The position numbers were made by a program, and so were the translations under genes. 64,000 nt of DNA from Clostridia bacterium (GTDB lineage Bacteria > Bacillota > Clostridia > Christensenellales > Borkfalkiaceae): assembly GCA_017466825.1 (NCBI GenBank), contig JAFTTJ010000006.1:33368-97367 (forward strand), written 5' to 3'. The number at the start of each line of letters is the position of its first letter. Position 1 is the first letter of the stretch. Shown here in pieces: positions 10,401 through 27,620 of the stretch. The notes below the pieces were generated by a model. It saw only the letters and a list, made by a program, of their open reading frames with translations, was not told where the DNA came from and did not search any database.

Positions 10401-10455
10401 AATAGACGTGGGAGAGATTTATTCTCGCATGAACCACAAGGAGGACTTTTAAATA

Positions 10456-11145: not shown

Positions 11146-11151
11146 TTTCGT

Positions 11152-11180
11152 TTGACAAAGTACCGTATCGGTGCTATAAT
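11152..11180 (+). promoter_or_regulatory. consensus sigma-A promoter for rplJL (TTGACA-17-TGcTATAAT)
   Basis: -35 at 11152-11157, 17-nt spacer, extended -10 at 11172-11180. Confidence 0.65.
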
Positions 11181-11826: not shown

Positions 11827-11862
11827 TTAGAGCAAAAAATAATTAAAAGAGAGGATATTAAA

Positions 11863-12234: not shown

Positions 12235-12250
12235 GATAAATTTCAACTTT

Positions 12251-12280
12251 AAAGAGCACTCGTTTGAGTGCTCTTTTTTG
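12251..12280 (+). terminator. rho-independent terminator after rplL
   Basis: Stem AAAGAGCACTC / GAGTGCTCTTT followed by a T run. Confidence 0.8.
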
Positions 12281-12433
12281 TTGGTGAAAATAATTGCCGT
12301 TGCTATCGCTGCTCCCTTTTAGTAAAAACATAAAGGGCGGAGTTTAGCCCCGCCCTTAAAAAAGTTTATTTAAATAAAATTTTATCGCGACAAAAGTCGC
12401 TCAAACGTGATAGTTAAAAAGCCCTTTATTTGA

Positions 12434-12640
12434 TTATTTGCCAAATAATTCGGTTGCAGAAACTTCAAAGATTTCAATAATTTTATAAATATCGCTTATA
12501 TTTGGTTCTCTTCGACCTTGTTCCCAGTTTGCATACGTGCTAACGGGAATTTTTAATAGTAAAGCAACTTGTTTTTGAGATAGATTTTTATCAATGCGCA
12601 GTTCTTTAAGATTGTCGCAAAAGCGTAGTTTATTTTCCAT
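12434..12640 (-). CDS. small XRE/Cro-CI family HTH transcriptional regulator (68 aa)
   Basis: HTH_3 signature LSQKQVALLLKIPVSTYANWEQGRREP. Confidence 0.8.
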   Translation of the reverse strand: MENKLRFCDNLKELRIDKNLSQKQVALLLKIPVSTYANWEQGRREPNISDIYKIIEIFEVSATELFGK

Positions 12641-12674
12641 TTTTTTGCCCCCTACTTTATAATAATACCATAAA

Positions 12675-12716
12675 GTAGTCGAAATGACTTGACAATAGTC
12701 AAAATGACCACTATAA
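12675..12716 (+). promoter_or_regulatory. perfect sigma-A promoter (TTGACA-17-TATAAT) flanked by two direct 13-bp repeats (candidate operators)
   Basis: -35 at 12688-12693 and -10 at 12711-12716. TAGTCGAAATGAC (12675-12687) and TAGTCAAAATGAC (12695-12707) bracket the -35. The XRE gene diverges from this region. Confidence 0.5.
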
Positions 12717-12745
12717 TATTATTATCAAACAAGGTGGTGGTAATA

Positions 12746-13033
12746 ATGAATAAAATGTCAGCGATAGAAGAACTTTTCTTTAATAACTGTGGTATAGACG
12801 AAAGTTTAAAGGGTAAAAAAGCCGAATATTTGACAAGCCTAGATAAGGTCATTGAAAGGGAAGAGAACTTACTTGAAAAGTTAAGGAAAACACCTGCTAT
12901 TTTTGATTTATATCAAAATTTTCAGATCGAGCAAAGTAAACTACAAGAAGAAGAAAGAAAAAGTTTGTATGAGCAAGCCTTTAAATTTGGGATAATTTTA
13001 GGTCTTGAAATTGCGGGCTTTTGGTGTAAATAG
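12746..13033 (+). CDS. small hypothetical helical protein (95 aa)
   Basis: The ATG at 12746 follows AAGGTGGTGG. Divergent from the XRE regulator. No motif recognised. Confidence 0.4.
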   Translation: MNKMSAIEELFFNNCGIDESLKGKKAEYLTSLDKVIEREENLLEKLRKTPAIFDLYQNFQIEQSKLQEEERKSLYEQAFKFGIILGLEIAGFWCK

Positions 13034-13044
13034 GTTTTTGCTTA

Positions 13045-13149
13045 AATTTTGTTAACGCCCCGAAAAATTCGGGGCGCGTTTTTATGCTAAAAAACGATTA
13101 TTCGTAAAATAACTCTTTAATAAAAAGCAAAAATATCTTTTTGTAAAGA
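13045..13149 (+). repeat. copy 1 of a ~105-bp direct repeat containing a terminator hairpin
   Basis: Near-identical, with a few substitutions and one indel, to 13875-13980. Includes GCGCCCCGAAAAATTCGGGGCGC followed by a T run. Confidence 0.85.
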
Positions 13150-13342
13150 CTAAAACGCTCCTAAAAACAGGCAAAAATAAGCAAAATTCCGCAAAAAACG
13201 CTTATTTTTGTCGATTGACTTGTGTAAATTGTGAAAAATTTTAGTAAAGTATTGACAAGCGCAGTATTATATTGTATTATTTTACCATCCAAACCAACCA
13301 AGTTTGGAAAGGGATAGATTATTCAAAATAAAGGAGAGTAAA

Positions 13343-13867
13343 ATGGAAAACAAAACTAAAATGAAAGAAAAAACTATAAAGATTCATAGCACGGGATATA
13401 AAATAATGCTTGTGATGCTATTAGTATTTTATCTAATTAGTTGTCCGATTTTTTGTATGTTGCCGGACGATTTGTTTTTGCCTACTAAAGTCATAGTATT
13501 TTTAATAGAAACGGCAGGCGTTATTTTTATGTTATTATTTACCGTTTTTGAGCCTGCAAGCAAAGGGCAAATGTTGTTTGCTAGCGAAGAGAATCCAACT
13601 AAGATCCCCATAAAAAGGACTTTAATATTTATACTTTTAACGTCGCTAATTTTTGGGTTTGGGTATACTTATTTATCAACTTTGATGCTAATTTTATTTG
13701 GGGATAAATCGGTTTTTGTAAAATTGGATGTAGTATTACTTTTAAGAATATTCTTCGCTCTTTTTTTAGTGGTGTCGTCATTTATAATTATGTTGACTAC
13801 CTTTATAATTTCATGGACTGTTGCAAAGAAAAAACAACGCAATGAAGAAGTTGCGCAAGACGAATAA
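13343..13867 (+). CDS. hypothetical polytopic membrane protein (174 aa)
   Basis: The ATG at 13343 follows AAAGGAGAG. About four hydrophobic segments. No motif recognised. Confidence 0.5.
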   Translation: MENKTKMKEKTIKIHSTGYKIMLVMLLVFYLISCPIFCMLPDDLFLPTKVIVFLIETAGVIFMLLFTVFEPASKGQMLFASEENPTKIPIKRTLIFILLTSLIFGFGYTYLSTLMLILFGDKSVFVKLDVVLLLRIFFALFLVVSSFIIMLTTFIISWTVAKKKQRNEEVAQDE

Positions 13868-13874
13868 TAATAAA

Positions 13875-13980
13875 AATTTTGTTAGCGCCCCGAAAAATTC
13901 GGGGCGCGTTTTTATGCTAAAAAAAGATTATTCGCAAAATAACTACTTTAATAAAAAGCAAAAATATCTTTTTGTAAAGA
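13875..13980 (+). repeat. copy 2 of the ~105-bp direct repeat containing a terminator hairpin
   Basis: See 13045-13149. Confidence 0.85.
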
Positions 13981-14182: not shown

Positions 14183-15217
14183 ATGGGACTTTTTGGACTT
14201 TTTTCCGGTAAACCACAAGTAATTAAATTTGAACAAAATCTTTGTAATGCAAACGTAAACGACAACAGCGTTTTATTCGTAAGGGTAAACGACCTTGTTA
14301 AGAGTAAAGACGCAATGCTTGAAGTTCCTTTCACGCACAACGCTTTTCTTATTAAAGGCGGTGGTGACTGCCGTTTTTATAAGAGCGGTACTTACGACGT
14401 ATTCGACGACAAAAAGGAAATCAAGGCTTGGAAACAAGGTATTTCAGTAGAAGTAGTATATATTCCTAAGGAAACGTCCGTACTTATTCGTTGGGGCACT
14501 AGCGAAAAGGTTACTTACCGTGATCCTAAGTCTGCAAAAGTAGTACAAGTAGGCGCGCGCGGTCAATTTGGCGTAAGCATTTCTAACCCCGAACAATTTT
14601 TAAGAAAAGTAGTCGGCGCAAGAAAGGAATTTGACCTTCGTGATTTCAGCAACCGTTTCTCGGCGGCTGTTGTTGACGAATTTGCAGACGTATTTTTACA
14701 CGTAGTTACTGCAAACGATATTTCTTACGACTTATTCGACGCTAACAGAAAGAGAATTGCATCTTTAGCAGGCGCAGCGCTTAGCGAAAAGTTTGATAAA
14801 GACTGGGGTATTTCTCTCGTTGACTTCATCATTGAAAGTTTCAATATGGCCGAAGGCGACAAAGAAAAAGTCGAAGCGATTTTGGAAGAAAGAATCAACG
14901 AAGATAAGATTAAAAAGCATCTTGAAGAACTTGAAAGACTCGACGACAAGCAATGGGAAAGAGATAAGTATCTTCTTGGTCTTCAACAAAGCGACAGAGA
15001 AGCGTATTACGAAGTTATCAAGGCAATCGGCAAAAAGGACGACGCTAGAAAGGGCGGAAATTTCTGTCCTAAGTGCGGACATAGCGTAGAATCTACTCAG
15101 GCTTTCTGCCCCCATTGTGGCAACAGAATGGGTCAAGTAGAAGTTGCTTGCCCCAAGTGTGGTAAAATCAACAAGGGCGACGCAAAATTCTGCGGTGGTT
15201 GCGGAAATAAACTTTAA
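14183..15217 (+). CDS. SPFH-superfamily protein of the YdjI type (COG4260-like) with C-terminal double zinc ribbon
   Basis: From memory, the body aligns with B. subtilis YdjI-type SPFH proteins (VLIRWGT..., GARGQFGVSISNPEQF, ISLVDFIIESFNM). The C-terminus has two CPxCG...CxxCG ribbons. The ATG at 14183 follows GGAGGG. Confidence 0.7.
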   Translation: MGLFGLFSGKPQVIKFEQNLCNANVNDNSVLFVRVNDLVKSKDAMLEVPFTHNAFLIKGGGDCRFYKSGTYDVFDDKKEIKAWKQGISVEVVYIPKETSVLIRWGTSEKVTYRDPKSAKVVQVGARGQFGVSISNPEQFLRKVVGARKEFDLRDFSNRFSAAVVDEFADVFLHVVTANDISYDLFDANRKRIASLAGAALSEKFDKDWGISLVDFIIESFNMAEGDKEKVEAILEERINEDKIKKHLEELERLDDKQWERDKYLLGLQQSDREAYYEVIKAIGKKDDARKGGNFCPKCGHSVESTQAFCPHCGNRMGQVEVACPKCGKINKGDAKFCGGCGNKL

Positions 15218-15235: not shown

Positions 15236-15568
15236 ATGTTCTTTTTTAAGAAAAAAACTAATGCGGAAAAAAACAAAAACGATAGAGATATGATCGAAGC
15301 CAACAGCAAAATGATGGAAGCGCTTATCGTTTTGACTGATAACGCCGACTTAAAGGCTGAATTTAAGGCTATTGAAGAGCAAATTAAGTACATAATTCCG
15401 CTCGTAGACGACAAAGCGGCTGAAATGGACAAAAAGATTAAAAACGCTATCAGCGACATTAAAATCGAACTCGTTAAAGACAGAGCGGACGACAAGGCGA
15501 CTGCAAAACTCAACGGACTTGTAAAAGACCTTAAAGTTTTAATCGCTGAAAGAAAGGCTCTCGTATAA
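15236..15568 (+). CDS. small coiled-coil protein (110 aa), unknown family
   Basis: Entirely helical and charged in composition. Lies 18 nt after the SPFH gene and 10 nt before the next gene. Confidence 0.45.
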   Translation: MFFFKKKTNAEKNKNDRDMIEANSKMMEALIVLTDNADLKAEFKAIEEQIKYIIPLVDDKAAEMDKKIKNAISDIKIELVKDRADDKATAKLNGLVKDLKVLIAERKALV

Positions 15569-15578: not shown

Positions 15579-16202
15579 ATGGGTTTTTTCAGTAAAATTA
15601 TCGAATTTTTCACGGGTGGCAATAAGTTTAACAAACTCACCAGAGAAGAAGTAGTTGACTCTATTTGCTCTCTTGAAAAAGAACTCGACAATATCGAAAA
15701 GAGTATAGAAGACACCCAGCCGAGAATCGACGCTATTATGGCAAAAGGAAAGGCGACCAAAGAGCAACAAATGCGCCTTTTCTACGCTAAAAAAATCAAC
15801 TCGATTAGGGCTGAGCGTACGGCGAATATCCAAAGGGCAACCTATCTTGCCTACAATATTCAACTTCTTGAAAAACTTAAAAAGGCAATCGACGATAAGA
15901 CCTTCTTCGGCTCGAAGAGTAAGCAATCTTTAAACCAACTTTTGTCAGACCAAAAGGCTCTTGCGGTATTTTTAAACGACGCTTTAGACACTAGAATTAC
16001 GGCTGAACAAGTGCTTACCGACGCGGACGAAGTGTTTAAGGAAGTTGAAGAATCTTACGTTGAAAACGATACTATTTACGGCATTAAAGATCAAGACAAC
16101 GAACTTATGGCTATGTTTGAAACCGAAGAGATGGTAAACGATACCGCTCCGCTTGCAAGCCAACCTGCCGACACACCTAAAAACGGAAATTTAGAAGGTT
16201 AA
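15579..16202 (+). CDS. ESCRT-III superfamily (PspA/Snf7-like) protein, 207 aa
   Basis: MGFFSKI N-terminus like PspA and CHMP proteins, a long helical-hairpin-type heptad region, and a strongly acidic C-terminal third with a Pro-containing tail. Assigned by eye only. Confidence 0.5.
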   Translation: MGFFSKIIEFFTGGNKFNKLTREEVVDSICSLEKELDNIEKSIEDTQPRIDAIMAKGKATKEQQMRLFYAKKINSIRAERTANIQRATYLAYNIQLLEKLKKAIDDKTFFGSKSKQSLNQLLSDQKALAVFLNDALDTRITAEQVLTDADEVFKEVEESYVENDTIYGIKDQDNELMAMFETEEMVNDTAPLASQPADTPKNGNLEG

Positions 16203-16206: not shown

Positions 16207-16779
16207 ATGGGAATTTCAAAAAAAGAAATAGAAAAGAAGATGCTTATTAAAAAGACTATCAACTCTATGAATAAGCAAATTCAAAAGTTAGAAGAACAAA
16301 AGCAAGTCTATATCCAAGCGGGAAGAGAAGCGAAGGCTAAAGGTCTTTCGGCTCAATACAACTTAGCGCTCAGCGGTCTTAGAATGACTATCGCTCAACA
16401 AAAGAGAGTTTACGAAATGAAACTCAATTTTGAAATCACTTCGCAAATGAAAGATATGACGATGATGACTTCGGAATTTTTGAAGGGCATGGGCGTTTTG
16501 AGCAAGGATATGATGAAACTTTCAAAGGAAAAAGATTTCTACACAGTTCAAAAGCAATTTGAAGAAGCAATGATGGGCGCGGAAATGCAAACCGAACAAC
16601 TCGAAACGTTTATGGACTCTACTCAAAGCGCGTTTGAATCTAACACGCCTATGAGTTTAGAAGACAACAAAGAACTCGACGCTATTATGGGCGTTTCGCT
16701 TACCGACGGCTTAAACGACGATTTAGGCTCTTCGATTGAAAAGGAATTAGAAGCCCTTAAAAAACTCTCTAATCTTTAA
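16207..16779 (+). CDS. ESCRT-III/Snf7 (CHMP/Vps2-Vps24-like) protein with MIM1-like C-terminal helix, 190 aa
   Basis: Basic N-terminal half and acidic C-terminal half. The core aligns by eye with CHMP3-type sequences (REAKAKGLSAQYNLALSGLRMTIAQQKRVYEMK ... FLKGMGVLSKDMMKL). The tail SSIEKELEALKKLSNL fits the MIM1 pattern. Confidence 0.6.
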   Translation: MGISKKEIEKKMLIKKTINSMNKQIQKLEEQKQVYIQAGREAKAKGLSAQYNLALSGLRMTIAQQKRVYEMKLNFEITSQMKDMTMMTSEFLKGMGVLSKDMMKLSKEKDFYTVQKQFEEAMMGAEMQTEQLETFMDSTQSAFESNTPMSLEDNKELDAIMGVSLTDGLNDDLGSSIEKELEALKKLSNL

Positions 16780-16789: not shown

Positions 16790-18931
16790 ATGGCAAGCGC
16801 GGATTTATTATACGAAACCTTTAATCTTCATTTAAACAAAGCGAAGAGTTGTCAGGCAGGCGGTGATTACGTTACCGCTAAAAAGTATTATATACTTGCC
16901 GCAGAACAAATGTTAAAACTTGCTAAAGAGTCGACGGGGGATTTGCAAAAAGCGAGATATTTGCGCGCGCAAAACGTTTTGGAAGAAGCCAAAAAAATGG
17001 ATACTATCGCTCCAAAACAAGCGGTGTTAAACCCCGCTCCGCAAAGCGACGTTAAGCCGACCGTTCCTGCTCAAAAGGTTTCTTTAGCAGAAGCCTTGGC
17101 AAAACTCAATTCCTTAGTCGGTCTTGAAAACGTAAAAAAGCAAGTCAACGCTTGGGTAGACCAAATCCAAACCTTTAAAAAGAGAAAGGAACGCGGACTA
17201 GTCGTGCCGGAAATTACCTATCACATGGTATTTTCGGGCAATCCCGGTACGGGCAAGACTACGGTTGCGCGTATTATGGCGGAAATTTACTGCGCTCTCG
17301 GCGTGGTAACCGACGGTCAACTCGTTGAAGTTTCTAAACCCGACTTGGTTGCAGGACACGTAGGTCAAACGCCTATTAAAACCCAAGAAGTTCTTAAAAA
17401 AGCGTATGGTGGCGTTCTTTTCGTAGACGAAGCCTACTCACTTTTAAAGGGTGGCGATTTCGGTCAAGAAGCAATCGACACTATGCTTAAATATATGGAA
17501 GACCACAGAGATAACATAGTAGTTATCGTTGCCGGTTACGAAAAGCCTATCGAAAGGTTTATTTCGGCTAACCAAGGTCTTCGTTCACGCTTTAACAACT
17601 TTATCAAGTTTGACGACTATACTCAAGAAGAACTATGCGCAATTTTTGAAGGATTGTGCTCAAAAAATCAATATAAACTCATCCCCGAGTCAAGGACTTT
17701 GGTAAGGGCGTACCTTAAACACATTTACGACAACCGCACGCCCGAATTTGCAAACGGTAGAGAAGTGCGTAACCTTTTTGAAGGTATAGTAACCCGTCAG
17801 TCGAGAAGGGTAAACTTAATACCCAACCCCACCGACGAAGACATGGTTACCATTTTACCCCAAGATTTGGCGTTTAGCGTACCCGTTGAACCCACGCCCG
17901 CGCCCGTTCAGCCCGTTCAACCTGTTCAGCCTGCGCAACCCGTTACCCCCGCTCCCACTCCGAGCGAAAACGGTATAGACGTGATAATTGGCAAAAAGGA
18001 AGAAGAAAAGGTTGAAAAACCGCCTATGCCCGAAGATAAGGTCTTAGAAGAAGGCGTTACTTTCGACAGTGAGTTTAAGTTCGACTGGGATAGTCTTCCT
18101 TGCATAACTTTTGACGACGTCGCAGGGCTTGAAAGCGTAAAAGAAGCGGTAAAAATTAAAGTATTGCTTCCCCTTAAAAACCCCGACGCCTTTAAAGGCT
18201 ACGTCAAAAAGAGTGGCGGTGGACTTTTACTTTACGGCCCTCCGGGCACGGGTAAGACCATGATTGCCGCCGCTATCGCAAACGAAATAGGCGCAAAATT
18301 CTGTTCGGTAAAACCGTCCGACCTTTTGCACCAAGGCGCAGGTCAGTCTGAAAAGGCTATAAGGACGTTGTTTGCGCAAGCGCGGCAGTTTAAGTGCGCG
18401 GTAATTTACTTTGACGAAATGGATTCTATTTCGCCTAAGAATACCCGTTCGCAATACGCAAAGCAACTTCGTTCGGAATTCTTATCACAACTTCAAGGCA
18501 TTGAAAGTTACGGCAAAGATACGGGCAACATCCTATTTTTAATCGCCGCAACCAACAAGCCGTGGGATATTGACAGCGCGTTTGTTAGACCGGGCAGATT
18601 CGGTACGAGAATTTACGTAGGACTTCCCGACGACGACGCGAGAAGATATATCGTCGTAAGCAAAATTGACAAGATTAAAGAGCAAGGCGAAGTTAAAATC
18701 GCCGACGATATCCCCTACGACGATATCGTTGCTAAAACCGAAGGCTATAACGGTTCGGACATAGCAAACCTTATGGACGAAATACAAGAAACTTCTATTA
18801 TTCGTGGCGTTTTAACGGGCGAAAAGTGTATTTTGGCAGAAGATTTTGAAAAAGCATTTGCTAAAATTAAGTCGTCCGTTCAAAAAGACGACATTGAAAA
18901 ACTTATGGCTTGGACGGAAGAAAATAACTAA
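16790..18931 (+). CDS. MIT-like domain / SpoVK-CbbX-type AAA+ / Pro-rich linker / classical (Vps4-katanin-FtsH clade) AAA+ ATPase, 713 aa
   Basis: The N-terminal 70 aa resemble the Vps4 MIT three-helix bundle. AAA1 has Walker A GNPGTGKT and Walker B LFVDEAY. The linker is PVEPTPAPVQPVQPVQPAQPVTPAPTP. AAA2 has GPPGTGKT, IYFDEMD and the SRH ATNKPWDIDSAFVRPGRF. Confidence 0.8.
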   Translation: MASADLLYETFNLHLNKAKSCQAGGDYVTAKKYYILAAEQMLKLAKESTGDLQKARYLRAQNVLEEAKKMDTIAPKQAVLNPAPQSDVKPTVPAQKVSLAEALAKLNSLVGLENVKKQVNAWVDQIQTFKKRKERGLVVPEITYHMVFSGNPGTGKTTVARIMAEIYCALGVVTDGQLVEVSKPDLVAGHVGQTPIKTQEVLKKAYGGVLFVDEAYSLLKGGDFGQEAIDTMLKYMEDHRDNIVVIVAGYEKPIERFISANQGLRSRFNNFIKFDDYTQEELCAIFEGLCSKNQYKLIPESRTLVRAYLKHIYDNRTPEFANGREVRNLFEGIVTRQSRRVNLIPNPTDEDMVTILPQDLAFSVPVEPTPAPVQPVQPVQPAQPVTPAPTPSENGIDVIIGKKEEEKVEKPPMPEDKVLEEGVTFDSEFKFDWDSLPCITFDDVAGLESVKEAVKIKVLLPLKNPDAFKGYVKKSGGGLLLYGPPGTGKTMIAAAIANEIGAKFCSVKPSDLLHQGAGQSEKAIRTLFAQARQFKCAVIYFDEMDSISPKNTRSQYAKQLRSEFLSQLQGIESYGKDTGNILFLIAATNKPWDIDSAFVRPGRFGTRIYVGLPDDDARRYIVVSKIDKIKEQGEVKIADDIPYDDIVAKTEGYNGSDIANLMDEIQETSIIRGVLTGEKCILAEDFEKAFAKIKSSVQKDDIEKLMAWTEENN

Positions 18932-19023
18932 TTTACAACTAATATTAAGGGACGTCCCGTATTTAATTATGCGGGACGTTTCTTGAATAAGGCAAAATTC
19001 GATTTGCCTATATGGAGAAAGGA

Positions 19024-22000
19024 ATGAGCGAACTTAAAACTTTAGAAGTGTGTCTTCAATGTGGCGGTGAACTGCAAGCCGACCCAAGAACGGGTGTGCT
19101 TGAGTGTATTTATTGTCACAGAAAGCACGTTGGGGGAACGGAGAGTTTTAGCGACGATTTAAAGAGAATCGTCGAGCAAAGACAACTTCGCGAATTTATA
19201 AAAGCCGAAGAACTTTGCGAAGAACTCATCAAAAAACAACCGAACAGCCCCGAAGCCCATTGGCAAATGGTGCTTGCTAAACTCGGCGTAGTTTACGTAA
19301 ACGAAGGCGGAGATAGTAAGCCAACCTTTTTTAGCTGTTCGTATAGCGACCGTGAAAGTATTTTAAACGATATCAACTATAAAAAAGCGTTAGACAATGC
19401 AAAAAGTGGAGCGGATAGGCTTTATTACGAAGATAAGGCAAAGGAACTCGACGAACTTTTGCAGGAATTTTTCATGCTCATTAAAAAGGAAAAGAACTAC
19501 GATATTTTTATTTCCTTTAAGCATTTAGAAGAAGTTACCGACGCTCACGGCGCAAAGAGAAAAATCGAAACTAAGGACTGCCGTAAAGCGAGAGAAATTT
19601 ACGAGCAGTTAAAAGATAAATATCACGTATTCTTCTCACCCGTATCAATAGGTCAAGACACGGGTATTCAAGGCGAAAAGTACGAGCCGAGAATTTTAAA
19701 GGCAATTCAGAGTTCGCAAGCAATGATTTTGGTAGGTTTTACCGAAGAAAACATTAAATCGCAATGGGTTGAAAACGAGTGGAGAAGATATAAATATCAA
19801 ATAGATAAGGGCAAGAAACTTAAAAAGTCGCTCATCTACGTTTACGACGAAACCCCCGTCCTTTTCAGACTTCCCGCATTTAGAGATATTCAAATGCCCA
19901 ACGTCGACGTCGACAAGGGTAAATATCTTGAAGAGATTGAAAAGGCGGTAGCCTTCGTAAGTTCGAGTAAGGGCTTAAAATCGGCTCTTTCGGGCAAAAA
20001 GGTAAACGTCGACTTTGAGTCGGAAGAAAACGACTCAATGTTTTCAAATAATATCCGTTCGGTAATTTCTATCGGTGGCTCTGGCGGTAAAGAGCAGATA
20101 AAAATTTCGGCAAATGAAGAGCGTTCTCTTCAATCGGCAGAGTCCGATATGGCGAGAGAGCGTTTTGGCGAAGCCATAAACACCTTTAAGGAAATTATAA
20201 AGAATAACCCCCGTTCTGCGCCTGCGCATTGGGGTTGGTTTAAGGCAAAAATCGGCGCAAAGAGCGATCAACTCGTGCCCGACAAACTTGCATCAGGCAA
20301 ACTTGCGTCAAGCGACTTAAATCTTTTGGATAAGGCTATCGAGTATTCCACCGACGCTGATTTTTCTTGGAGCATTATCGACACTATTATAGAGTGTTTT
20401 AAAAAGCAAAGCGATTGGAATAAGGTTAAGCCCTTATACGGTTTTTTAATCAATTACATAGACGAAAACCGTATCAAAAGATTACTTAAAATATTAGAGC
20501 ATACATGTGAAGTTGCCGTAGCGGACGGTAAACCTAAGGTTAGTGAAGACGTTTTTGAAAACGCTAAAAAGATATTTATAGAAGAAGTTAAGCGTTATAG
20601 TATGCAATTTATGGATACTTACGCTACTAATTTGGCTAAATATGGATATTACGACTACGCGCGTAAATATTTCGAGCAACTAGCGTCTGCAAGGAATTCG
20701 AGTTACGCTTACATAAAATTGCTCGCTTGTAGAATTAAATCTTCTTCAATTGCGCAAGCGGTTATCAAACTCGACAAGCCTAAAAACGAGCCCGAGGAAG
20801 GCGTTGTTAAAAAGGTTTCCGAACTCACGATTGCTGAAATTCTTGAAAGAATAGTCGTTTGCGACAATAAGGAAAACAAGTCCTTACCCGTACTTAAATA
20901 CGACGGAACGGACGGCTATGAGACCGGTTCATTTAAGACCTTGCGCGAGTGTTTAGTTTATCAAGCGCGCTATAATAAAGGCGGTGTGCACGGACTTGTT
21001 GAGATTGTTGCAGGCACGTATAAAGAACTCGGCTCGAAAGAAGCGACTAGAGATATTCTTTTCACCGTCGCTGAAGAACTCGTTCTTTCAAGGAACTTTA
21101 CCGAAGCCGAAATTTGGTATAGAGAAATTTTAGCCGACGATCCCAACGATGCTTTAGCCCATTGGGGTACGCTAAAATGTAGGCTTAAAGCCGTTGATGA
21201 CTACGCCGTTTCAAAACACGGTAAAAAACTTCAGGAAATTCTTGAATATAACAACGCTAAAAACTGCGCCGACAACGAACAATTTGAATATTTTGAAAAA
21301 GTTCGTTACGGCGAAATAGCCCCGCCGAGCGGTGGTGACGGCTCTAATAAAAAAGCGCCCGCAAGGTCTTATGAAGAAGTAAAGACTATTTCAGTTTCGG
21401 AAATTTTATTCGGTACTTTAAAGCTTGCCCTTTATGCGATTATAGCGATATTCTCGCTACTTACCATTTTAGAGCCTAAGGTGATTTTTGCAAATATCCA
21501 CTTCGGCGTTGCAATAGCAGTTTTCGTAGGTTTATGGATAGTCGTGCCGATAGTCCTTTCAAGGCATAAAGGTGGCTCGGGCGACGATCTCGACTCGCAT
21601 ATTTTAAATAATAGAAAGACTTCGGAAAAGGCTATGGTTTGGGCTGTTTCTCTCGTAACTACTTTTATCTTCTGTATAGGTATGTTTACGGCAGGGCATC
21701 GCTCTTACCACCTTACCACCGCAAACGATTTAAACCTTCTTGCTAACCTTCCCAGCGCTAACACGGCAGACTATATCCTTGAAAACGATATCGATTTTGA
21801 AGGTAACGAGTTTGGCGCGTTTGGCAAAATGGGCGAGTTTGAAGGAACTTTCGACGGTCAAGGCTACGTTATTTCAAATTTCGTGGTAAACGCGCAAATC
21901 GGCGAAGTTAGCGATTCTTATCAAGGCGTCAACAAGTACAGTTTTGGTTTTATCACTTCTATTACGAGCGGTGAAATCAAAGACGTAACCTTTGATTCAT

Positions 22001-22467
22001 GCGTGGTAAAAATCGATTATCAAAGAGAAGAACAGAGAAGTTATATCGGTTTTGTAACGGGCGTAAACGGCGGTAGCATTGCTAATTGTCACGTTATAGA
22101 CTGTTATATCGCTTTAAGACCGCAAATCGGCTCGGTTGAAAACTTCTTAGTAGGCGGAATTTCTGCTTGTCTTGGACAAGACGTTTACAGTACGCCTAGC
22201 GTAGACAACGCTACTTACGGAAAGGGAAGTATAACTAATTCGTCCTTCGTATGCGTAAACGACGCCGACGATTTTGACGACGACGACAACTACGCTTATG
22301 CGATTATCATTAGTAAAAAAATTCCCGAGCATCGCTACACCGTAAACGGAATTACTTGCACTAACGCAACGGATGCGCTCGTGGGTACGGTAAGTAATTG
22401 TCAAATTATTACTTTAGATAACGGCAAAGTGTTTGAAGTAAACTTTTTAGGCGAAAAGGAGGATTAA
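19024..22467 (+). CDS. zinc-ribbon / TIR / TPR-like / 3-TM / extracellular GLUG-like beta-helix protein (~1147 aa)
   Basis: N-terminal CxxC...CxxC. TIR_2-like block YDIFISFKH ... SQWVENEW (nt ~19495-19881). Three repeats of the type P..AHW...K.G. Hydrophobic helices at nt ~21400-21700. C-terminal DIDF..N.F....EF.GTFDGQGY.ISN plus G-rich GLUG-like repeats. An alternative ATG lies at 19012. Confidence 0.75.
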   Translation: MSELKTLEVCLQCGGELQADPRTGVLECIYCHRKHVGGTESFSDDLKRIVEQRQLREFIKAEELCEELIKKQPNSPEAHWQMVLAKLGVVYVNEGGDSKPTFFSCSYSDRESILNDINYKKALDNAKSGADRLYYEDKAKELDELLQEFFMLIKKEKNYDIFISFKHLEEVTDAHGAKRKIETKDCRKAREIYEQLKDKYHVFFSPVSIGQDTGIQGEKYEPRILKAIQSSQAMILVGFTEENIKSQWVENEWRRYKYQIDKGKKLKKSLIYVYDETPVLFRLPAFRDIQMPNVDVDKGKYLEEIEKAVAFVSSSKGLKSALSGKKVNVDFESEENDSMFSNNIRSVISIGGSGGKEQIKISANEERSLQSAESDMARERFGEAINTFKEIIKNNPRSAPAHWGWFKAKIGAKSDQLVPDKLASGKLASSDLNLLDKAIEYSTDADFSWSIIDTIIECFKKQSDWNKVKPLYGFLINYIDENRIKRLLKILEHTCEVAVADGKPKVSEDVFENAKKIFIEEVKRYSMQFMDTYATNLAKYGYYDYARKYFEQLASARNSSYAYIKLLACRIKSSSIAQAVIKLDKPKNEPEEGVVKKVSELTIAEILERIVVCDNKENKSLPVLKYDGTDGYETGSFKTLRECLVYQARYNKGGVHGLVEIVAGTYKELGSKEATRDILFTVAEELVLSRNFTEAEIWYREILADDPNDALAHWGTLKCRLKAVDDYAVSKHGKKLQEILEYNNAKNCADNEQFEYFEKVRYGEIAPPSGGDGSNKKAPARSYEEVKTISVSEILFGTLKLALYAIIAIFSLLTILEPKVIFANIHFGVAIAVFVGLWIVVPIVLSRHKGGSGDDLDSHILNNRKTSEKAMVWAVSLVTTFIFCIGMFTAGHRSYHLTTANDLNLLANLPSANTADYILENDIDFEGNEFGAFGKMGEFEGTFDGQGYVISNFVVNAQIGEVSDSYQGVNKYSFGFITSITSGEIKDVTFDSCVVKIDYQREEQRSYIGFVTGVNGGSIANCHVIDCYIALRPQIGSVENFLVGGISACLGQDVYSTPSVDNATYGKGSITNSSFVCVNDADDFDDDDNYAYAIIISKKIPEHRYTVNGITCTNATDALVGTVSNCQIITLDNGKVFEVNFLGEKED

Positions 22468-22468: not shown

Positions 22469-22993
22469 ATGGTATTAAGAATTTTAAAAGCAACCTTTAA
22501 AATAGTCCTTCTTTTTGCGTTTGCGTTTGCAGTAGCGTTTGGCTTTAATATGGCAATGGATAACCTGCTTTTTAGCGATTTCGATATCTACGGCGTGGCT
22601 TTTATAGTCCCCGTTGAAACGGAATTTGGGTACAATATAATTCGCGCGTTGTTCTTTTTGTTTTACGATACAACGGTAAGATACGTCGTTATTTTAGCCT
22701 TAATTTTAGTTCCGTATTCCTTAATTTCTTTAAATACGGTAGACGAATTTGGCCGTTCTTTTAGCAATACCGTTTTAGCCGACGTTAAGTATTATATCGG
22801 CAAGGTTATCACTTTTGAAAAAGAAGCTTGGTTTTGGGGACTTTGCTTTTTTACAGGTTTCGTACCAATTTTAGCCCCGCTCGTCCTTTGGATAATTCTT
22901 CGCGTTTTATACGCCGTAGTACTTATCGTATTGTCGCCTATTATCTTTATAATAGTGCAGGGGGTTAATGCGGTGCGTGGTAGCGTAGCATAA
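22469..22993 (+). CDS. hypothetical 4-TM membrane protein (174 aa), translationally coupled to the TIR gene
   Basis: The ATG lies 1 nt after the upstream stop. Four long hydrophobic segments. Confidence 0.5.
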   Translation: MVLRILKATFKIVLLFAFAFAVAFGFNMAMDNLLFSDFDIYGVAFIVPVETEFGYNIIRALFFLFYDTTVRYVVILALILVPYSLISLNTVDEFGRSFSNTVLADVKYYIGKVITFEKEAWFWGLCFFTGFVPILAPLVLWIILRVLYAVVLIVLSPIIFIIVQGVNAVRGSVA

Positions 22994-22994
22994 T

Positions 22995-23070
22995 TTAAAG
23001 GCTTATCTACTTCGTTAGCCTACGTTACTGTGTCGCCTTCAAAACCTTGGTGACCAACAAGGTCTACCAA
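22995..23070 (+). repeat. intergenic repeat, A-type copy 1 (shared left end TTTAAAGGCTTAT.TAC.TCG and a covarying hairpin)
   Basis: Begins immediately after the stop codon at 22993. Similar to 35656-35735. The hairpin lies at 23047-23070. Confidence 0.7.
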
Positions 23071-23200
23071 AATAAAGGCTAAATTTCCTTAATATTAAAA
23101 AGGGCGACTGTAACGGCTTACAAGCCAAAAAGTCGTCCTTTTTTAATTCAAATAATATACGGCTTTTGCCATAACAACTCTTTATTTAGGAGAAAAACAC

Positions 23201-24103
23201 TTGAAAAATAAACTAATAACGACTATTTGTATATTAGTCGCCTTAACCCTATCTATTTTGGCGTTTGCGCCGTTTGACTGTGGTAAGTTGGACGGCTCTA
23301 ATTGGATGAGTCGATTAAATAGAGATTTAGAATTAAATCAAGTTTCTATTCCCGGCTCGCACGATTCGGGCGCAACCCATTCAATCGGCGACGTTGCAGG
23401 TAAATGCCAATCGCTTAGCGTTGGCGAGCAACTTAAAATCGGCGTAAGGTTTTTTGATATAAGGTTGCAACAAAGAAAGGGCGTTTTGCATCTCGTTCAC
23501 AGTTTCGTTGACCAAAACTTGCGTTTTGATGACGTCGTAAGCGAGTTTAGCGCCTTTTTAGACCAAAACCCCACGGAATTTTTGTTAATTTCTATTAAGG
23601 AAGACGCCGACCCCGTCGGCTCTACCGTAGATTTTGCAACCGCCGTAAAAACAGCCCTTGAGAAGAGAAAAGAAAGGGTAAATTTCGGCAATTCCTTGCC
23701 TAGCACGGTTGGTCAGGCACGGGGCAAAATGCATATTCTTTCAAGATTTAACGGTGATTTTGGGTTTGCGGTACATAGTGGTTGGCGAGATTCGACTAGT
23801 TTTGAAGTAAACGGCGCTTTCGTGCAAGACAACTACTGCATTTCGGACGAAAACGCTAAGATAAACGATATTATAGCCTGCTTTAAAGAGAGCGCTACTC
23901 AAAAGCACGTTCTTACCTTAAACTTTACGAGTTGTTACTTTGACTATGGTTTTCCGCCACTTTATGCAGGCTCTACGGCTAAAATTATCAACGCTTGGCT
24001 ACTTGAAAATTTAGACTCTCATAAAGGTTGTCTTGGGTTGGTAATAAGCGATTTCGTCACGAGCGAACTCGTCCAAAAGGTGTATAGGAGAAATTATTTA
24101 TGA
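23201..24103 (+). CDS. secreted phosphatidylinositol-specific phospholipase C X-domain protein
   Basis: Signal peptide, then IPGSHDSGA and RFFDIRL motifs like bacterial PI-PLC (PlcA type). TTG start after AGGAG. Confidence 0.7.
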   Translation: MKNKLITTICILVALTLSILAFAPFDCGKLDGSNWMSRLNRDLELNQVSIPGSHDSGATHSIGDVAGKCQSLSVGEQLKIGVRFFDIRLQQRKGVLHLVHSFVDQNLRFDDVVSEFSAFLDQNPTEFLLISIKEDADPVGSTVDFATAVKTALEKRKERVNFGNSLPSTVGQARGKMHILSRFNGDFGFAVHSGWRDSTSFEVNGAFVQDNYCISDENAKINDIIACFKESATQKHVLTLNFTSCYFDYGFPPLYAGSTAKIINAWLLENLDSHKGCLGLVISDFVTSELVQKVYRRNYL

Positions 24104-24480
24104 AAAAATTTAGCGATATAATTTGCGCCGTTTTGGCAGTGGTAACCATAATAATTTTTGCGCTCTTTTTAGTAATTGAAGGGCGAATACTCTTTTCGGG
24201 CGATTGGCTTTTACACGAAAATAAGGTCCTTGCCTTTTTGCAATATTTTTTAAAAACGGCGTTCAGTCTTTTTGCAATATTTACGGGCGTAGCCGTATTC
24301 ATTAAAAATTTTCAAGGCGTAATAGGGCTTTTATGCGACTGTCTAGTAGTCGTAGCCTTACCTGCGTTCTTGTTTTTGAGCAACGGTTTTGGTCTTTATA
24401 TACTAATACTTGTGGTATCGCTTGAACTTGCCGTAAAGTTTAAAACTCTAAACGCCGAAGACGAAAATTTGGCGCAGTAA
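24100..24480 (+). CDS. hypothetical 4-TM membrane protein (126 aa)
   Basis: Start overlaps the PI-PLC stop (ATGA). Hydrophobic throughout. Confidence 0.5.
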   Translation: MKKFSDIICAVLAVVTIIIFALFLVIEGRILFSGDWLLHENKVLAFLQYFLKTAFSLFAIFTGVAVFIKNFQGVIGLLCDCLVVVALPAFLFLSNGFGLYILILVVSLELAVKFKTLNAEDENLAQ

Positions 24481-24746: not shown

Positions 24747-27620
24747 TTAGTCGGGTAAAACGGTGGGGTCTAAAAGTTCGTCTTCATAGACGAAGAAAGA
24801 TTCCACACCCATCATATCGCTACTATACAAGTTGCCGTCTTTATCGACGGTAAGCCTAACCGTAAGCGCGGTAACGCTCAAAGTGATTTGATCGCCGTCG
24901 ACCGAGTAAGAGCAGTTTTCGTAAACGCTTTCGCCAATATAAAAGTCTGCAACGCCGTTGCCGTAGGAAACGATAGTAAACATTTTATAATCGTTAGCGC
25001 CGAAACATACGTAAGTTCCGTAAAGTTTTTCTTCTTCTACGGTAGCGTAATTTGAACGCACGAAACTAGCGGTATAGGTAATAATTTCTTCGTAATCGTT
25101 AAGCATAAACGCAACCGAAATGCTATCCGTAAACGGGTCGTAAGTTCCCGTATATTCAACTACGCCAGCGTATTCGGGGTGGGTTTTGTTATTGCCGTCG
25201 ATTTTGAGTTTAAAGGTAGTACCGCTAATCGACCACTCAAACGGGGTAAGGAAAGATCCGTACATATCAAAAGTACCTTTGCCCGCGCCTTTTTCGTAGT
25301 TGTAAAGTACGAAATTAGTCCAGTTGTAGGAGTCGTAAAATTTCTTTGGCTCGCTAAGGGTATGTACAACGCCGTCTTTATTAAAGGTGATAACCCTATT
25401 GCCGTAAATTGCGTTAATCGTGCCAAACTCTTCAAAAGTTATGTTGAGCATTGCGCCGTTTAAGGTATAGTCGCCGTATTCCTTTTTATATTCGTATTTG
25501 CTACCGCGCATAGACGAAGTGTCTTCGGCGCATTCTGCGATAGTATATACGGTAGCCCTATTGCACCCGTCAAGGTCAATATAAAAATCTCCGTCGCCGT
25601 AGTGTCCTACTTCAGCCCCGTCGGGGGAAGGTTTAACGAATTGCGCAAAGTCTTTAAAGCCGTCGGCGTTTATAAAAATTTCGTGGTAGGACTTGCCTGC
25701 GTTTTCGCCCGTTTGGCATTTGCCCGACGGTACGTAAATAACCGTTTTTGCCGAGTTTACCATAGAGAAGAAGTTTCTGTCAACGTCTTCAATCTTATTG
25801 TCGTAAAAACCTACTTCGGGGGGAGTGGTAGCCCTAAAATACATTCTTTCAAGGTTGTTTGCCATACCGAAAGAAAGGTAGCCCATATACTTAATAGTCG
25901 ACGGAATATCTATAATTTTAAGGTTAAAACTACTTAAAAACGCTCCGTCGCCTATCCTTTCAAGTCCTTCGGGGAAGTATAATCTTGAAAGATAGTTACC
26001 TACGAAAAAGCCCGCAAAAGCGTAATCGTCAATCTCTTTAAGCGTTGACGACATATATAAGTTTTTAACGCTCGTACAGTTGTAAAAAGCGTATTTACCT
26101 ATTTTGGTAAAGCCTTCGGGAAGGGTGATTTTTTGGATTTTAGCGCAGTTATAAAAAGCGAAGTCCGAAATTTCCTTAACGCCGTCGGGAACGGCTACGG
26201 TAGTAAAATCTTCGCCGTCGGCTTTTATATAACCGATAAGAATATCGTTTTCAATAATATAACCCGTCGTATTTTCGTATTCAATAGAGAATATTCCCGA
26301 AGCGTAATCACGCATGAAAAGGTCTTTGCGGTACTCTCTATACGGCGAAGTTTCGCCGTCGTCTGCAGGTACGAAAACGAGTAAATCACTATAATACAAA
26401 AGGTCGCCTTCTACCGCCGTGAAAATCGTTTCGCCTATATCGCAAGGGGTGGGACTTTCAAAATAAACTCTTTTAAGGTTGTTACAAGCGTAAAAGGCAA
26501 GGTCACCTATCGACTCGATATTTTCAGGGAAATAAATTGTTTCAAGTTGGGTAAAGCCGAAAGCGCCGTCGCCGATAGTCGTTAATTCTTCGCCGAAAAC
26601 AAAGTCCGCAACGGGGGTTTCCCAAAAGGCGTAATTGCCGATAGATACGAGATTGGCAAAATCTAAACCCGTAAAGCCCGAGCCAAAAAAGGCTCTGTCT
26701 AGTATAAACATAGCGTCTTCAATGCCCGTTACGTCCGCATTTTTACATCCTTCAAAGGCGTATTTTCCTATCGAGATTAGATTACTAGACTTTACGATTA
26801 TCTCTTCAAGGTAAAAACAGTTGTAAAAGGCGGCGTCAGGGATTAAATCGCCACACCCTACGGTAACTTTTTTAAGGGACTCGGGAATTACGTTATAAAG
26901 GTTAATCTTTATCGTTTCGCCCTCGTGCGTAAAGTCAAAACTTTCGGCGCTATAACGGTTTTTAGCGGGAGAAGTAACGCCAAACGTAAACGCAAAAAAC
27001 GAGTAAGCCGAAACGCTTTTAGTTTCACCGATAAAAGGAATATAGAGTTCGGTTAAAGCGCTATCAGCCGTGGTTACGCCGACTTCGCCGTTTTCAAAAT
27101 CTTTCAAAACGAGAACGTTTCCGAGCGCTCCGCAACCTAATTTTTCAAGCGAGTTGGGGAAAGATATTTTTTCAATCTTGGGGCAGTCGAAAAACGCGCC
27201 TTCGCCTACCGTTTTTAGCCCTTCGCTAAAATTGACTTTGGTTAAATCGTGGCAGTAGCCGAAAGAGTATTCGCCGATATCCGTTATTGAAGACGGGATA
27301 GTAACCGATTGTATTTTGCTTTCTTTAAATGCGTTTGAAGCAATTTCAGTAACGGGCTCGCCTTGGTATACGGACGGAATAACTACGTCGGTTTGGCTTC
27401 CGCTATAACTTATAACAACGCCGTTTTCAATAGTCAAGCCGTCTGCAATAGGGCTTTCGCTTTCGGGGTTGCTTTCCACAATCGACTCGCTTTCAGATTG
27501 GCTAGTTGAAATGAATTCCGAAGTTTGCCCGTCGCTTTGGCTAGTATCTTGTGGAACGCACGCTACGAAAAAACAAAATAATATAGCCGTAAATAAGAGT
27601 AATATAGTCTTTAATTTCAT
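24747..27620 (-). CDS. BspA-type leucine-rich-repeat surface lipoprotein (957 aa)
   Basis: Lipobox signal (LFCFFVAC), a Ser/Glu-rich linker, and many repeats of the type I.IP.S(V/I)..IG..AF..C..L. Confidence 0.75.
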   Translation of the reverse strand: MKLKTILLLFTAILFCFFVACVPQDTSQSDGQTSEFISTSQSESESIVESNPESESPIADGLTIENGVVISYSGSQTDVVIPSVYQGEPVTEIASNAFKESKIQSVTIPSSITDIGEYSFGYCHDLTKVNFSEGLKTVGEGAFFDCPKIEKISFPNSLEKLGCGALGNVLVLKDFENGEVGVTTADSALTELYIPFIGETKSVSAYSFFAFTFGVTSPAKNRYSAESFDFTHEGETIKINLYNVIPESLKKVTVGCGDLIPDAAFYNCFYLEEIIVKSSNLISIGKYAFEGCKNADVTGIEDAMFILDRAFFGSGFTGLDFANLVSIGNYAFWETPVADFVFGEELTTIGDGAFGFTQLETIYFPENIESIGDLAFYACNNLKRVYFESPTPCDIGETIFTAVEGDLLYYSDLLVFVPADDGETSPYREYRKDLFMRDYASGIFSIEYENTTGYIIENDILIGYIKADGEDFTTVAVPDGVKEISDFAFYNCAKIQKITLPEGFTKIGKYAFYNCTSVKNLYMSSTLKEIDDYAFAGFFVGNYLSRLYFPEGLERIGDGAFLSSFNLKIIDIPSTIKYMGYLSFGMANNLERMYFRATTPPEVGFYDNKIEDVDRNFFSMVNSAKTVIYVPSGKCQTGENAGKSYHEIFINADGFKDFAQFVKPSPDGAEVGHYGDGDFYIDLDGCNRATVYTIAECAEDTSSMRGSKYEYKKEYGDYTLNGAMLNITFEEFGTINAIYGNRVITFNKDGVVHTLSEPKKFYDSYNWTNFVLYNYEKGAGKGTFDMYGSFLTPFEWSISGTTFKLKIDGNNKTHPEYAGVVEYTGTYDPFTDSISVAFMLNDYEEIITYTASFVRSNYATVEEEKLYGTYVCFGANDYKMFTIVSYGNGVADFYIGESVYENCSYSVDGDQITLSVTALTVRLTVDKDGNLYSSDMMGVESFFVYEDELLDPTVLPD

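Follow-up and report, generated by a model that had tools for sequence, protein, structure and literature searches.

The characterised bacterial TIR systems are, to our knowledge, mostly soluble sensors or effectors. The gene described here, at positions 19024 to 22467 on the forward strand of a 64,000-nucleotide stretch of Clostridia bacterium DNA (contig JAFTTJ010000006.1; this whole stretch is referred to as the window), encodes a TIR protein that is predicted to be anchored in the membrane, and it stands in an operon with genes for an SPFH protein, a Snf7-like protein and a tandem AAA+ ATPase. In archaea, one ESCRT system includes an SPFH-coiled-coil-zinc-ribbon protein (PMC10936438), and ESCRT homologues are identifiable there 'but not in bacteria', in the words of Makarova et al. 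2024 (PMC10936438). Recent reviews describe bacteria as without ESCRT components other than PspA/Vipp1 (PMC10936438, PMC7619361), and according to a 2025 review a Vps4-like ATPase 'appears absent in bacteria' (PMC7619361). A PSP survey reports that Vps4-like ATPases have been transferred to some bacteria, beside a protein with TPRs and six transmembrane (TM) segments, and describes a Clostridium dyad of PspA with a two-AAA+ protein (PMC11237479). The ydj operon of B. subtilis couples PspA with the band-7 and zinc-ribbon protein YdjI (PMC11237479). The pairing of an SPFH protein with a member of the ESCRT-III superfamily has its precedents in YdjI-PspA and in the archaeal SPFH-coiled-coil-zinc-ribbon system (PMC10936438, PMC11237479). 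A TIR partner, or the operon described here, is named in none of these papers.

The TIR operon of the window is best described as a combination of known parts in a new arrangement, as far as the literature on bacterial TIR proteins with SPFH, ESCRT or transmembrane receptors goes, in which no description of this combination was found. The predictions give firm support to a membrane-spanning TIR protein, with the TIR domain inside the cell and a variable surface domain outside. Gene order across related genomes firmly supports the TIR gene as a component of an SPFH, Snf7-like and AAA+ gene set, to which a protease gene often belongs.

The TIR protein and its family

The element at 19024-22467 (+) is a single genuine and conserved gene. 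The uninterrupted open reading frame extends from 19012 to 22467 (+) and could encode 1151 amino acids. The ATG at 19024, which gives a product of 1147 amino acids, is a likelier start codon than the in-frame ATG at 19012, because a Shine-Dalgarno-like GGAG is found at 19014-19017, with no comparable motif upstream of 19012, and because an identical public protein (P0001, 1147 amino acids, named 'toll/interleukin-1 receptor domain-containing protein [Clostridia bacterium]' by one source) begins with MSELK, as do the orthologues. No further TIR genes were found in the window. The product comprises, in order, a Cys4 zinc ribbon, a TPR-like region, the TIR domain, a TPR superhelix of ~400 amino acids, three TM helices and a beta-rich C-terminal domain of ~255 amino acids, and the full-length AlphaFold (AF2) model has a mean predicted local distance difference test score (pLDDT) of 77.1. 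The features of the gene are as follows.

19024-22467 (+): whole gene for the zinc-ribbon-TPR-TIR-TPR-3TM-ectodomain protein, from the open reading frame, the identical public protein, the Shine-Dalgarno-like motif and the AF2 model
19051-19116 (+): Cys4 zinc ribbon (CLQC ... CIYC), from the CxxC motifs, Cys conservation and short strands in the model
19150-19485 (+): N-terminal TPR-like helices with a beta-hairpin, holding the first 'PEAHW' repeat, from Pfam TPR_14/TPR_19 at residues 57-90
19504-19947 (+): TIR domain, running from betaA (YDIFISFK) to alphaE, in which a beta-hairpin specific to the family is inserted after betaA, from Pfam TIR_2, the PDB profile search and the model
19777-19779 (+): codon of the candidate catalytic Glu of the W-x-x-x-E motif, E256 from the ATG at 19012 and E252 from the ATG at 19024, from conservation and the RUN1 alignment
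20110-21306 (+): cytoplasmic TPR superhelix of ~400 amino acids, holding the second and third 'AHW' repeats, from Pfam TPR, the model and Foldseek
21394-21699 (+): three TM helices, from hydropathy, the model helices and charge bias
21700-22464 (+): predicted extracellular, beta-rich, GLUG-like domain with the lead-in DIDFEG...GTFDGQGYVISN, from alignment, Glug matches of relatives and the model

Each element listed by the original prediction, an earlier reading of the DNA letters that named a zinc ribbon, TPR, TIR, TM helices and a beta-rich C-terminal domain, was recovered by motif, Pfam, hydropathy or the model, and its view of the architecture and of what lies inside and outside stands as far as sequence analysis reaches.

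The TIR domain is of the enzyme type and apparently catalytic. Pfam TIR_2 (PF13676) matches residues 188-294 of the full-length protein with E=2.2e-5 and 25.3 bits, under the gathering cutoff of 28, and the excised TIR region (window 19459-20046) exceeds that cutoff with 30.0 bits. A set of 72 TIR regions of relatives, gathered from genome contigs, served both for the conservation count and for a TIR-only profile; TIR_2 is matched by every one of the 72 (best E=6.8e-17), and the classical TIR model by 17 of them as well. The TIR-only profile was needed because the full-length family profile returned only TPR and zinc-ribbon matches from the PDB. Its best match among the PDB sequences was RUN1 (6o0w, E=2.7e-5), followed by RPV1, Roq1, AtTIR, TcpB, SNC1, L6, PdTIR and AbTIR. 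In the AF2 model the domain has the expected betaA-alphaA ... betaE-alphaE order, with block pLDDT values of 69-90 except in the BB loop (model residues 208-215), which is of low confidence or flexible.

The candidate catalytic glutamate had been placed at E256 (19777-19779) in the motif SQWVENEW, and this position proved exact: the motif occupies residues 250-257 in the 19012 numbering, so that the residue is E252 of the probable protein starting at 19024. This Glu, like the Trp that precedes it by four residues, is invariant across 72/72 sequences. In the HMMER alignment the family motif W-V-x-N-E-W lies over W-C-L-D-E-L of RUN1, which puts the Glu in the column of the catalytic glutamate of plant and bacterial TIRs. 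Both the domain assignment and the candidate Glu therefore survive profile search and alignment, in that the isolated domain reaches 30.0 bits, every relative matches and the Glu aligns with that of RUN1.

The CxxC pairs of the zinc ribbon are found at residues 14 and 32 (19012 numbering), and its four Cys are all invariant in 19/19 homologues. The model of the N-terminal TPR-like region has helices at 43-87 and 117-154 and a hairpin at 89-102, and Pfam TPR matches are found at residues 57-90, 374-408 and 682-713. An uninterrupted helical solenoid occupies model residues 363-761. Foldseek with the full-length model returned TPR proteins only, with P58IPK, OGT-TPR and Ski3 as the top matches; this confirms the solenoid and says nothing on the TIR and beta domains. 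Three AHW repeats had been described as following the TIR domain, which is true of the second and third, and the first (at about residue 82) precedes it.

The three hydrophobic helices claimed for the protein are present in both hydropathy and the model, where they span residues 791-816, 827-846 and 856-892 after a disordered linker. The predicted cytoplasmic loop between TM2 and TM3, SRHKGGSGDDLDSHILNNRKTSEK, contains five Lys and Arg residues and four more precede TM1, set against one in the TM1-TM2 loop and one after TM3. These 9 inside versus 2 outside fit an N-in/C-out topology. The same topology is supported by the lack of an N-terminal signal sequence in the TIR protein, by the N-terminal position of the Cys4 ribbon and by the TM counts of relatives. 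In a crude hydropathy scan of 87 homologues, 40 had a C-terminal tail of at least 150 amino acids after the last predicted TM helix, and the number of TM helices was odd (1 or 3) in 38 of these 40, the exceptions being P0015 and P0023. The placement of the TIR domain inside and the C-terminal domain outside, as first proposed, is thus upheld by these predictions.

The C-terminal domain is rich in beta strands in the AF2 model and can be aligned to its counterparts in 13 homologues. Pfam Glug (PF07581) matches 7 of the 14 aligned sequences (best E=9.4e-12), with no match at E<=1 for the domain of the window protein itself. The best PDB sequence match is the putative IgA1 protease 3n6z, weak at E=0.15, over the DIDxxG...FDGxGHxIxN lead-in. 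Given the seven Glug matches and the position of the 3n6z match, the label 'GLUG-like' seems reasonable at the level of the family, and is tentative for the window protein itself. The lead-in motif and the beta-rich character described by the original prediction hold good; its length of ~330 amino acids does not, the region after TM3 being ~255 amino acids long.

A database search gave 87 relatives of the TIR protein. Their N-terminal ~760 amino acids, comprising zinc ribbon, TPR, TIR and TPR superhelix, are conserved, and what follows varies. Some have three TM helices and a GLUG-like domain, others one or three TM helices followed by LRR_5/LRR_8 (P0039 and P0064 carry an LRR ectodomain after a single TM helix), others again Flg_new or FNIP domains, and there are also variants with 6-11 TM helices and no ectodomain, or with no TM helix whatever. 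By these comparisons the window protein is a member of a family with interchangeable predicted ectodomains on a constant cytoplasmic module. The ectodomain types (Glug, LRR_5, Flg_new, FNIP) are typical domains of Firmicute surface proteins.

A scan with one genome per species gave 169 matches, from which 79 loci were retained. Nearly all are from metagenome-assembled genomes (MAGs) of gut or rumen Clostridia (Christensenellaceae, Lachnospiraceae, Oscillospiraceae and others), with a few from Acholeplasmataceae, Treponemataceae, Coriobacteriaceae, Erysipelotrichaceae and one Myxococcales MAG. Multiple loci per MAG are frequent, for example in UBA1782, RGIG6167 and JAZKYL. Locus L073 has three tandem TIR-family genes (10256-13611) ahead of SPFH-AAA-protease genes, and in L006 an ADP-ribosylglycohydrolase gene (12855-13676) lies immediately 3' of the TIR gene. 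The window itself holds large genes for LRR_5/Flg_new repeat proteins at 24747-27620 (-) and 27682-29760 (-), of the domain types used as ectodomains by TIR orthologues; they are absent at the equivalent place in the closest relative, L004, where a YfhO gene comes next.

The operon and its SPFH, Snf7-like and AAA+ partners

The TIR gene of the window is preceded on the same strand by genes for SPFH, p110, p207, p190 and the tandem AAA+ ATPase. The features around it are listed here.

14183-15217 (+): SPFH (Band_7_1) protein with a C-terminal double zinc ribbon, whose gene opens the operon, from Pfam and co-location
15236-15568 (+): p110, a helical/coiled-coil protein of 110 amino acids, its position conserved in the surveyed operons
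15579-16202 (+): p207, a helical protein of 207 amino acids, conserved in the operon
16207-16779 (+): p190, a Snf7/ESCRT-III-family protein of 190 amino acids with the C-terminal sequence IEKELEALKK, from Foldseek and transitive Pfam matches
16790-18931 (+): tandem AAA+ ATPase of 713 amino acids, with an N-terminal helical region, D1, a Pro-rich linker and D2 with a Vps4_C helix, from Pfam, NCBIfam, PADLOC and PDB matches and the orthologue alignment
18945-19009 (+): pair of stem-loops in the spacer that separates the ATPase gene from the TIR gene, from folding energy and conservation in L004
22469-22993 (+): multi-pass membrane protein of 174 amino acids, starting 1 nt past the TIR stop and conserved in close relatives only (70% identical in L004, weakly similar in L013), from the open reading frame

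Orthologues whose TIR proteins are between 31% (L015) and 74% (L004) identical to that of the window have the same five-gene set beside them on the same strand. It lies upstream of the TIR gene in L004, L008, L009 and L013-L016 and downstream of it in L011, L019, L020 and L076, and in L088 and L089 the TIR gene is situated between the p190 and AAA genes. The protein encoded at this place in L089 is polytopic; L088 has, in addition to the TIR gene between p190 and ATPase genes, a second gene of TIR+LRR_5 type after a trypsin-like protease. When operons were sampled from the p190 side, two of three contained TIR genes. A very distant operon, L093, again encodes a trypsin-like protease, Band_7_1, Snf7-like protein, AAA+ ATPase and TIR, the last with E=5e-30 to the family HMM. 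Linkage to the upstream ATPase operon, which had been put forward as something to survey, is therefore borne out by same-strand co-location at 31-74% identity, in varied order, and by L093; for the orthologous group an occurrence of the gene independent of the operon is not borne out, and the operon set recurs beside its orthologues.

Between the ATPase gene and the TIR gene of most relatives lies a gene for a trypsin-like protease, which is absent from the window. L012 and L018 retain only SPFH-p110-protease-TIR. A same-strand SPFH gene is found within 10 kb in 21 of ~66 more distant paralogue loci, many of which have short flanks, and the chance expectation for such co-location is roughly estimated at <1%. 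Of the partners of the TIR family, SPFH seems to persist most.

The site at which most related operons hold the protease gene is taken in the window by the stem-loops, which lie in the 80-nt ATPase-TIR spacer with a minimum free energy of -35.3 kcal/mol (z=-8.9) and are kept in the 74%-identical orthologue locus L004 (4832-4906). They could be a terminator, an attenuator or a leftover of gene loss.

The membership of p190 in the Snf7/ESCRT-III family is confirmed by the combined evidence of relatives and a predicted structure. For p190 alone the best Pfam match is Snf7 (PF03357), at a non-significant E=0.074. Its family comprises 663 clusters at E<=1e-3, the best 120 of which are all 64-100% identical to p190, and the family profile matched 374 proteins among 1.84 billion representatives. 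A Pfam scan of ten distant p190 relatives gave Snf7 for P0320 (38.3 bits), P0295 (28.9), P0345 (27.3) and P0273 (27.0), the gathering score being 27.3. The AlphaFold model of p190 has five helices in an ESCRT-III-like layout, and its 14 best Foldseek matches in the PDB are all ESCRT-III proteins, with E-values of 4.5e-3 or weaker, followed by Vipp1/PspA; they include CHMP1B, CHMP2A/CHMP3, Asgard ESCRT-IIIB, Snf7, Shrub and Loki CHMP4-7. A sequence-profile search of the PDB with the p190 alignment gave nothing useful, and the ESCRT-III link therefore rests on structure and on the transitive Pfam matches. The C-terminal IEKELEALKK, which is conserved, resembles a MIM1 motif, as read from the alignment by eye. 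PspA_IM30 has no match in any operon protein.

Some distant p190 relatives (P0256, P0260, P0334 and P0345) are fusions of an N-terminal Snf7-like region with a RuvB-like AAA+ (RuvB_N, RuvB_C) and a NERD or TnsA-like nuclease. A Snf7-RuvB-nuclease fusion gene is also found at 6001-8403 of L093, within the operon that holds a second Snf7-like protein and the TIR.

Less can be said of the two small helical proteins. For p110 the Pfam scan gave no family match. p207 has a Snf7-like heptad pattern, seen by eye only and without confirmation. Its alignment had no match among PDB sequences, the profile-profile comparison of p207 with p190 was not significant, and the p207 profile matched 0/150 representatives of the p190 family. 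The assignment of p207 as an ESCRT-III protein was dropped for want of profile similarity to the p190 family and of a PDB match, and because the profile comparisons with p190 are null we do not claim it.

The Walker A and B motifs of the ATPase are intact in both of its AAA+ domains. D1 is nearest to CbbX and EccA1 in PDB sequence matches and is of the CbbX/EccA/SpoVK type. D2 is a domain of the classical clade (VAT/Cdc48/p97), with a Vps4 match of E=5.5e-46 and a Vps4_C match of 26.8 bits against a cutoff of 21.3. The D2 pore loop (18230-18262 region; aa ~DLLHQGAGQSEK) reads HQGAG, without an aromatic residue, and follows the pattern H/N-Q-G-A/V-G in 12/12 orthologues, and D1 keeps Y/H-V-G. 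This suggests that substrate threading, if any, would be carried out by D1. The N-terminal ~75 amino acids have MIT as a top but weak Pfam match (E=0.036), and the PDB MIT domain 2mpk matches at E=0.68; among 14 orthologues MIT is found in 2 and TPR_8 in 7, so that the region may be weakly MIT- or TPR-like. D2 also matches PADLOC IetA (E=8.7e-38). The IetA and TRIP13 matches of the ATPase in PADLOC were set aside as generic AAA+ similarity, and an identity as T7SS EccA or sporulation SpoVK was rejected, with scores far under the equivalog cutoffs. Distant bacterial operons such as L091 encode a single Vps4-sized AAA+ ATPase with Vps4_C beside Band_7 and Snf7 genes.

Downstream of the TIR gene, the gene for the 174-residue protein is followed by those for a PI-PLC-X-like protein, which has a hydrophobic segment at its N-terminus, and a membrane protein of 126 amino acids. 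As a trio, these genes (22469-24480) are conserved only in L004, the nearest relative, with 63-70% identity. Ahead of the operon, a GC-rich palindrome, (G)CGCCCCGAAAAATTCGGGGCG(C), with a T-run occurs twice, at 13056-13076 and 13885-13907, flanking a membrane-protein open reading frame at 13304-13867; the twin palindromes may represent a terminator present in two copies, or else a small repeat element. A DpnII-type restriction-modification pair (D12-class adenine methyltransferase and DpnII endonuclease) is found at 42365-44371, at the edge of a low-GC stretch (GC ~0.32 in the 44-48 kb region), which is consistent with a horizontally acquired island.

Possible functions of the TIR operon

The reading that we favour, tentatively and short of calling it probable, sees in the TIR protein an envelope-facing receptor/effector whose TIR domain would cleave NAD+ and which would act together with an ESCRT-III-like membrane module scaffolded by SPFH. 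It starts from what has been established computationally, namely the domain architecture, the topology indicators, the conservation of the catalytic motif, the swapping of ectodomains, the linkage to the operon and the Snf7 membership of p190. In such a system the ectodomain would bind an extracellular or cell-wall-associated ligand, or report a disturbance of the envelope, and this would alter how the cytoplasmic TPR-TIR modules cluster on the SPFH scaffold. The clustered TIR domains would then turn active and cleave NAD+, so that a signal is made or NAD+ is depleted. The TPR superhelix might recruit or position the Snf7-like polymer at the membrane site, and the AAA+ ATPase would remodel this polymer, with the membrane patch being sealed, shed or otherwise remodelled. 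Ligand sensing, NADase activity, the contacts between the components and a role in either defence or envelope maintenance are the parts of this scheme that we infer.

In a more far-reaching form, the operon would encode a genuine bacterial Snf7/ESCRT-III and Vps4-like AAA+ machine, scaffolded by SPFH and directed by diversifying receptors of Toll-like-receptor logic, with TIR signalling wired to ESCRT-type repair or shedding as a form of envelope immunity. We regard this form as doubtful. We know of no domain of life in which TIR signalling is coupled directly to ESCRT-type membrane repair or shedding, and such coupling, if true, would contradict the current view of bacteria as being without Vps4-driven ESCRT-III systems.

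A number of observations weigh against the favoured reading. D2 is without the aromatic pore-loop-1 residue that is expected for a Vps4-type unfoldase, the MIT similarity of the ATPase N-terminus is weak, and the model of p190 has a pLDDT of only 58.7, which is low confidence. A strong stem-loop lies between the ATPase gene and the TIR gene, and co-transcription could therefore be partial only. The operon of L087 has no adjoining TIR gene, and the available sequence around the TIR orthologue L010 contains no operon. PADLOC has no family for either the TIR or the SPFH protein, and by Pfam the operon holds no SLOG, Macro, SIR2, SAVED or STING domain, and so no recognisable receiver of a TIR-made nucleotide signal. 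Finally, p190 and D2 of the ATPase are very strongly conserved, which is more housekeeping-like than is fast-evolving defence.

This last point leads to the main rival explanation, in which the TIR protein is a housekeeping anchor or adaptor, a non-enzymatic or incidentally enzymatic tether between membrane and wall. Through its TPR and TIR regions it would nucleate the Snf7-like/AAA+ machinery, or put it in place, for some routine job, which might be division, vesicle release, fission of the sporulation type or membrane repair, much as CdvA, ALIX/Bro1 and YdjG/H recruit ESCRT-III-superfamily proteins, and the ectodomain would just bind the wall. As well as the very high conservation of p190 and the ATPase in Clostridia MAGs, the setting of the operon among core genes fits such a role: in the window it follows secE-nusG-rplKAJL, and elsewhere it has spo0A, spoIIID and gpr-type genes nearby. 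Wall-associated domains of the GLUG, LRR_5 and Flg_new kinds are common in Firmicutes, and membrane-maintenance modules of SPFH with PspA are known (PMC11237479). However, the W-x-x-x-E motif, invariant in 72/72 sequences, would be unexpected in a purely scaffolding TIR; ectodomain swaps between close orthologues and several loci per MAG would be unusual for an anchor; and related operons hold parts of conflict systems, such as the trypsin-like protease and the Snf7-RuvB-NERD nuclease fusion. On balance we consider this explanation unlikely, if a serious one.

The conserved catalytic Glu would be readily explained if the protein were instead a stand-alone abortive-infection TIR NADase, that is, a membrane sensor-effector with Thoeris/SARM1-like logic that depletes NAD+ on phage attack, the operon being unrelated to it. 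The many distant paralogues without the full operon and the strong intergenic hairpin upstream of the TIR gene are also in keeping with this, but the gene is found in the operon at varied positions, on the same strand and at 31-74% identity, it recurs in a very distant operon, SPFH genes stand beside even distant paralogues, and there is no PADLOC match. Such a stand-alone role therefore has only a slim chance of being correct. That the protein is a host-directed TIR mimic, a surface or secreted protein of a gut commensal that disturbs host Toll-like-receptor signalling in the manner of TcpB/BtpA or TcpC, is highly improbable, for all that the protein comes from a Clostridia MAG of gut or rumen origin and TcpB is among the weaker PDB matches, given that the TIR is N-terminal, lacks a signal peptide, is preceded by a Cys4 zinc ribbon, is predicted to be cytoplasmic, and has operon partners that are cytoplasmic or membrane-proximal.

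On the favoured reading of a receptor/effector tied to a membrane module, a bacterial operon that joins a Snf7-family protein, a Vps4_C AAA+ ATPase, an SPFH-zinc-ribbon protein and a TIR would link membrane remodelling with immune-type signalling, which are usually studied apart. With a few clonable genes, questions are opened as to how membrane-tethered TIRs are activated, what roles Snf7 proteins have in bacteria and what SPFH scaffolds organise.

Comparison with known systems

By their defining features, the Thoeris and IetAS systems, the Toll-like receptors, the ydj Psp module and canonical Vps4 systems all exclude the system of the window. With the enzymatic TIRs (AbTIR, TcpB, ThsB and RUN1/RPV1/Roq1) the protein has in common a TIR_2-type domain, the betaA strand YDIFISFK, the W-x-x-x-E motif of alphaC and, in the model, a flexible BB loop. 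In contrast to these, it is predicted to be held in the membrane by three TM helices and to carry an extracellular domain, and its TIR has zinc-ribbon and ~400-amino-acid TPR flanks and a hairpin insert. In comparison with Thoeris, the locus is without a ThsA-type partner or a PADLOC match; among the neighbouring genes, Pfam and locus annotation gave no Thoeris-type or other cognate partner (ThsA-type SIR2, Macro/SLOG, CBASS/Pycsar cyclase).

The likeness to IetAS lies in the IetA similarity of D2 and in the pairing of an ATPase with a serine protease in most related operons. However, the ATPase scores 107.3 bits against a cutoff of 510 for NCBIfam IteA, the protease of the relatives is trypsin-like and not a subtilase, and the SPFH, Snf7-like and TIR components are extra. 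The PspA and two-AAA+ operon of Clostridium sp. BNL1100 was considered and rejected as a counterpart, being another gene set, without SPFH or TIR and with an inactive N-terminal AAA+, whereas the Walker motifs of the window ATPase are intact.

The ydjFGHI Psp module and the window operon both encode a Band_7_1 SPFH protein with C-terminal zinc ribbons beside a protein of the ESCRT-III superfamily. This protein is of the Snf7 type in the window and is PspA_IM30 in ydj, and the window operon adds the tandem AAA+ ATPase and the TIR receptor, often with a trypsin-like protease in relatives; no YdjG- or YdjH-like genes were seen in the operon. With ESCRT-III and Vps4 (CdvB/CdvC) the system shares a Snf7-family protein with a C-terminus that resembles MIM1, a classical-clade AAA+ domain with Vps4_C, and an SPFH protein with a zinc ribbon. 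It differs in that the ATPase would form two rings, with a CbbX/EccA-like D1 and a non-aromatic D2 pore loop, in that no ESCRT-I or ESCRT-II parts are present in the window system, and in its bacterial host.

Animal Toll-like receptors follow the same logic, in which an ectodomain that varies and binds ligand is joined across the membrane to a TIR in the cytoplasm, and some orthologues of the window protein even have LRRs with a single TM helix. The order is reversed in the window family, with an N-terminal TIR predicted inside and a C-terminal ectodomain outside, and the window protein itself has three TM helices and a GLUG-like domain. Where LRRs occur in the bacterial proteins they are of the LRR_5 (BspA) type, and the partners are SPFH, Snf7-like and AAA+ proteins as opposed to MyD88-type adaptors. 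Beyond the TIR fold, nothing points to common descent with the Toll-like receptors. An apparently catalytic TIR behind interchangeable surface domains, LRRs among them, would amount to a Toll-like-receptor design reached from first principles, and the family offers a tractable bacterial model for the outside-in activation of TIR domains.

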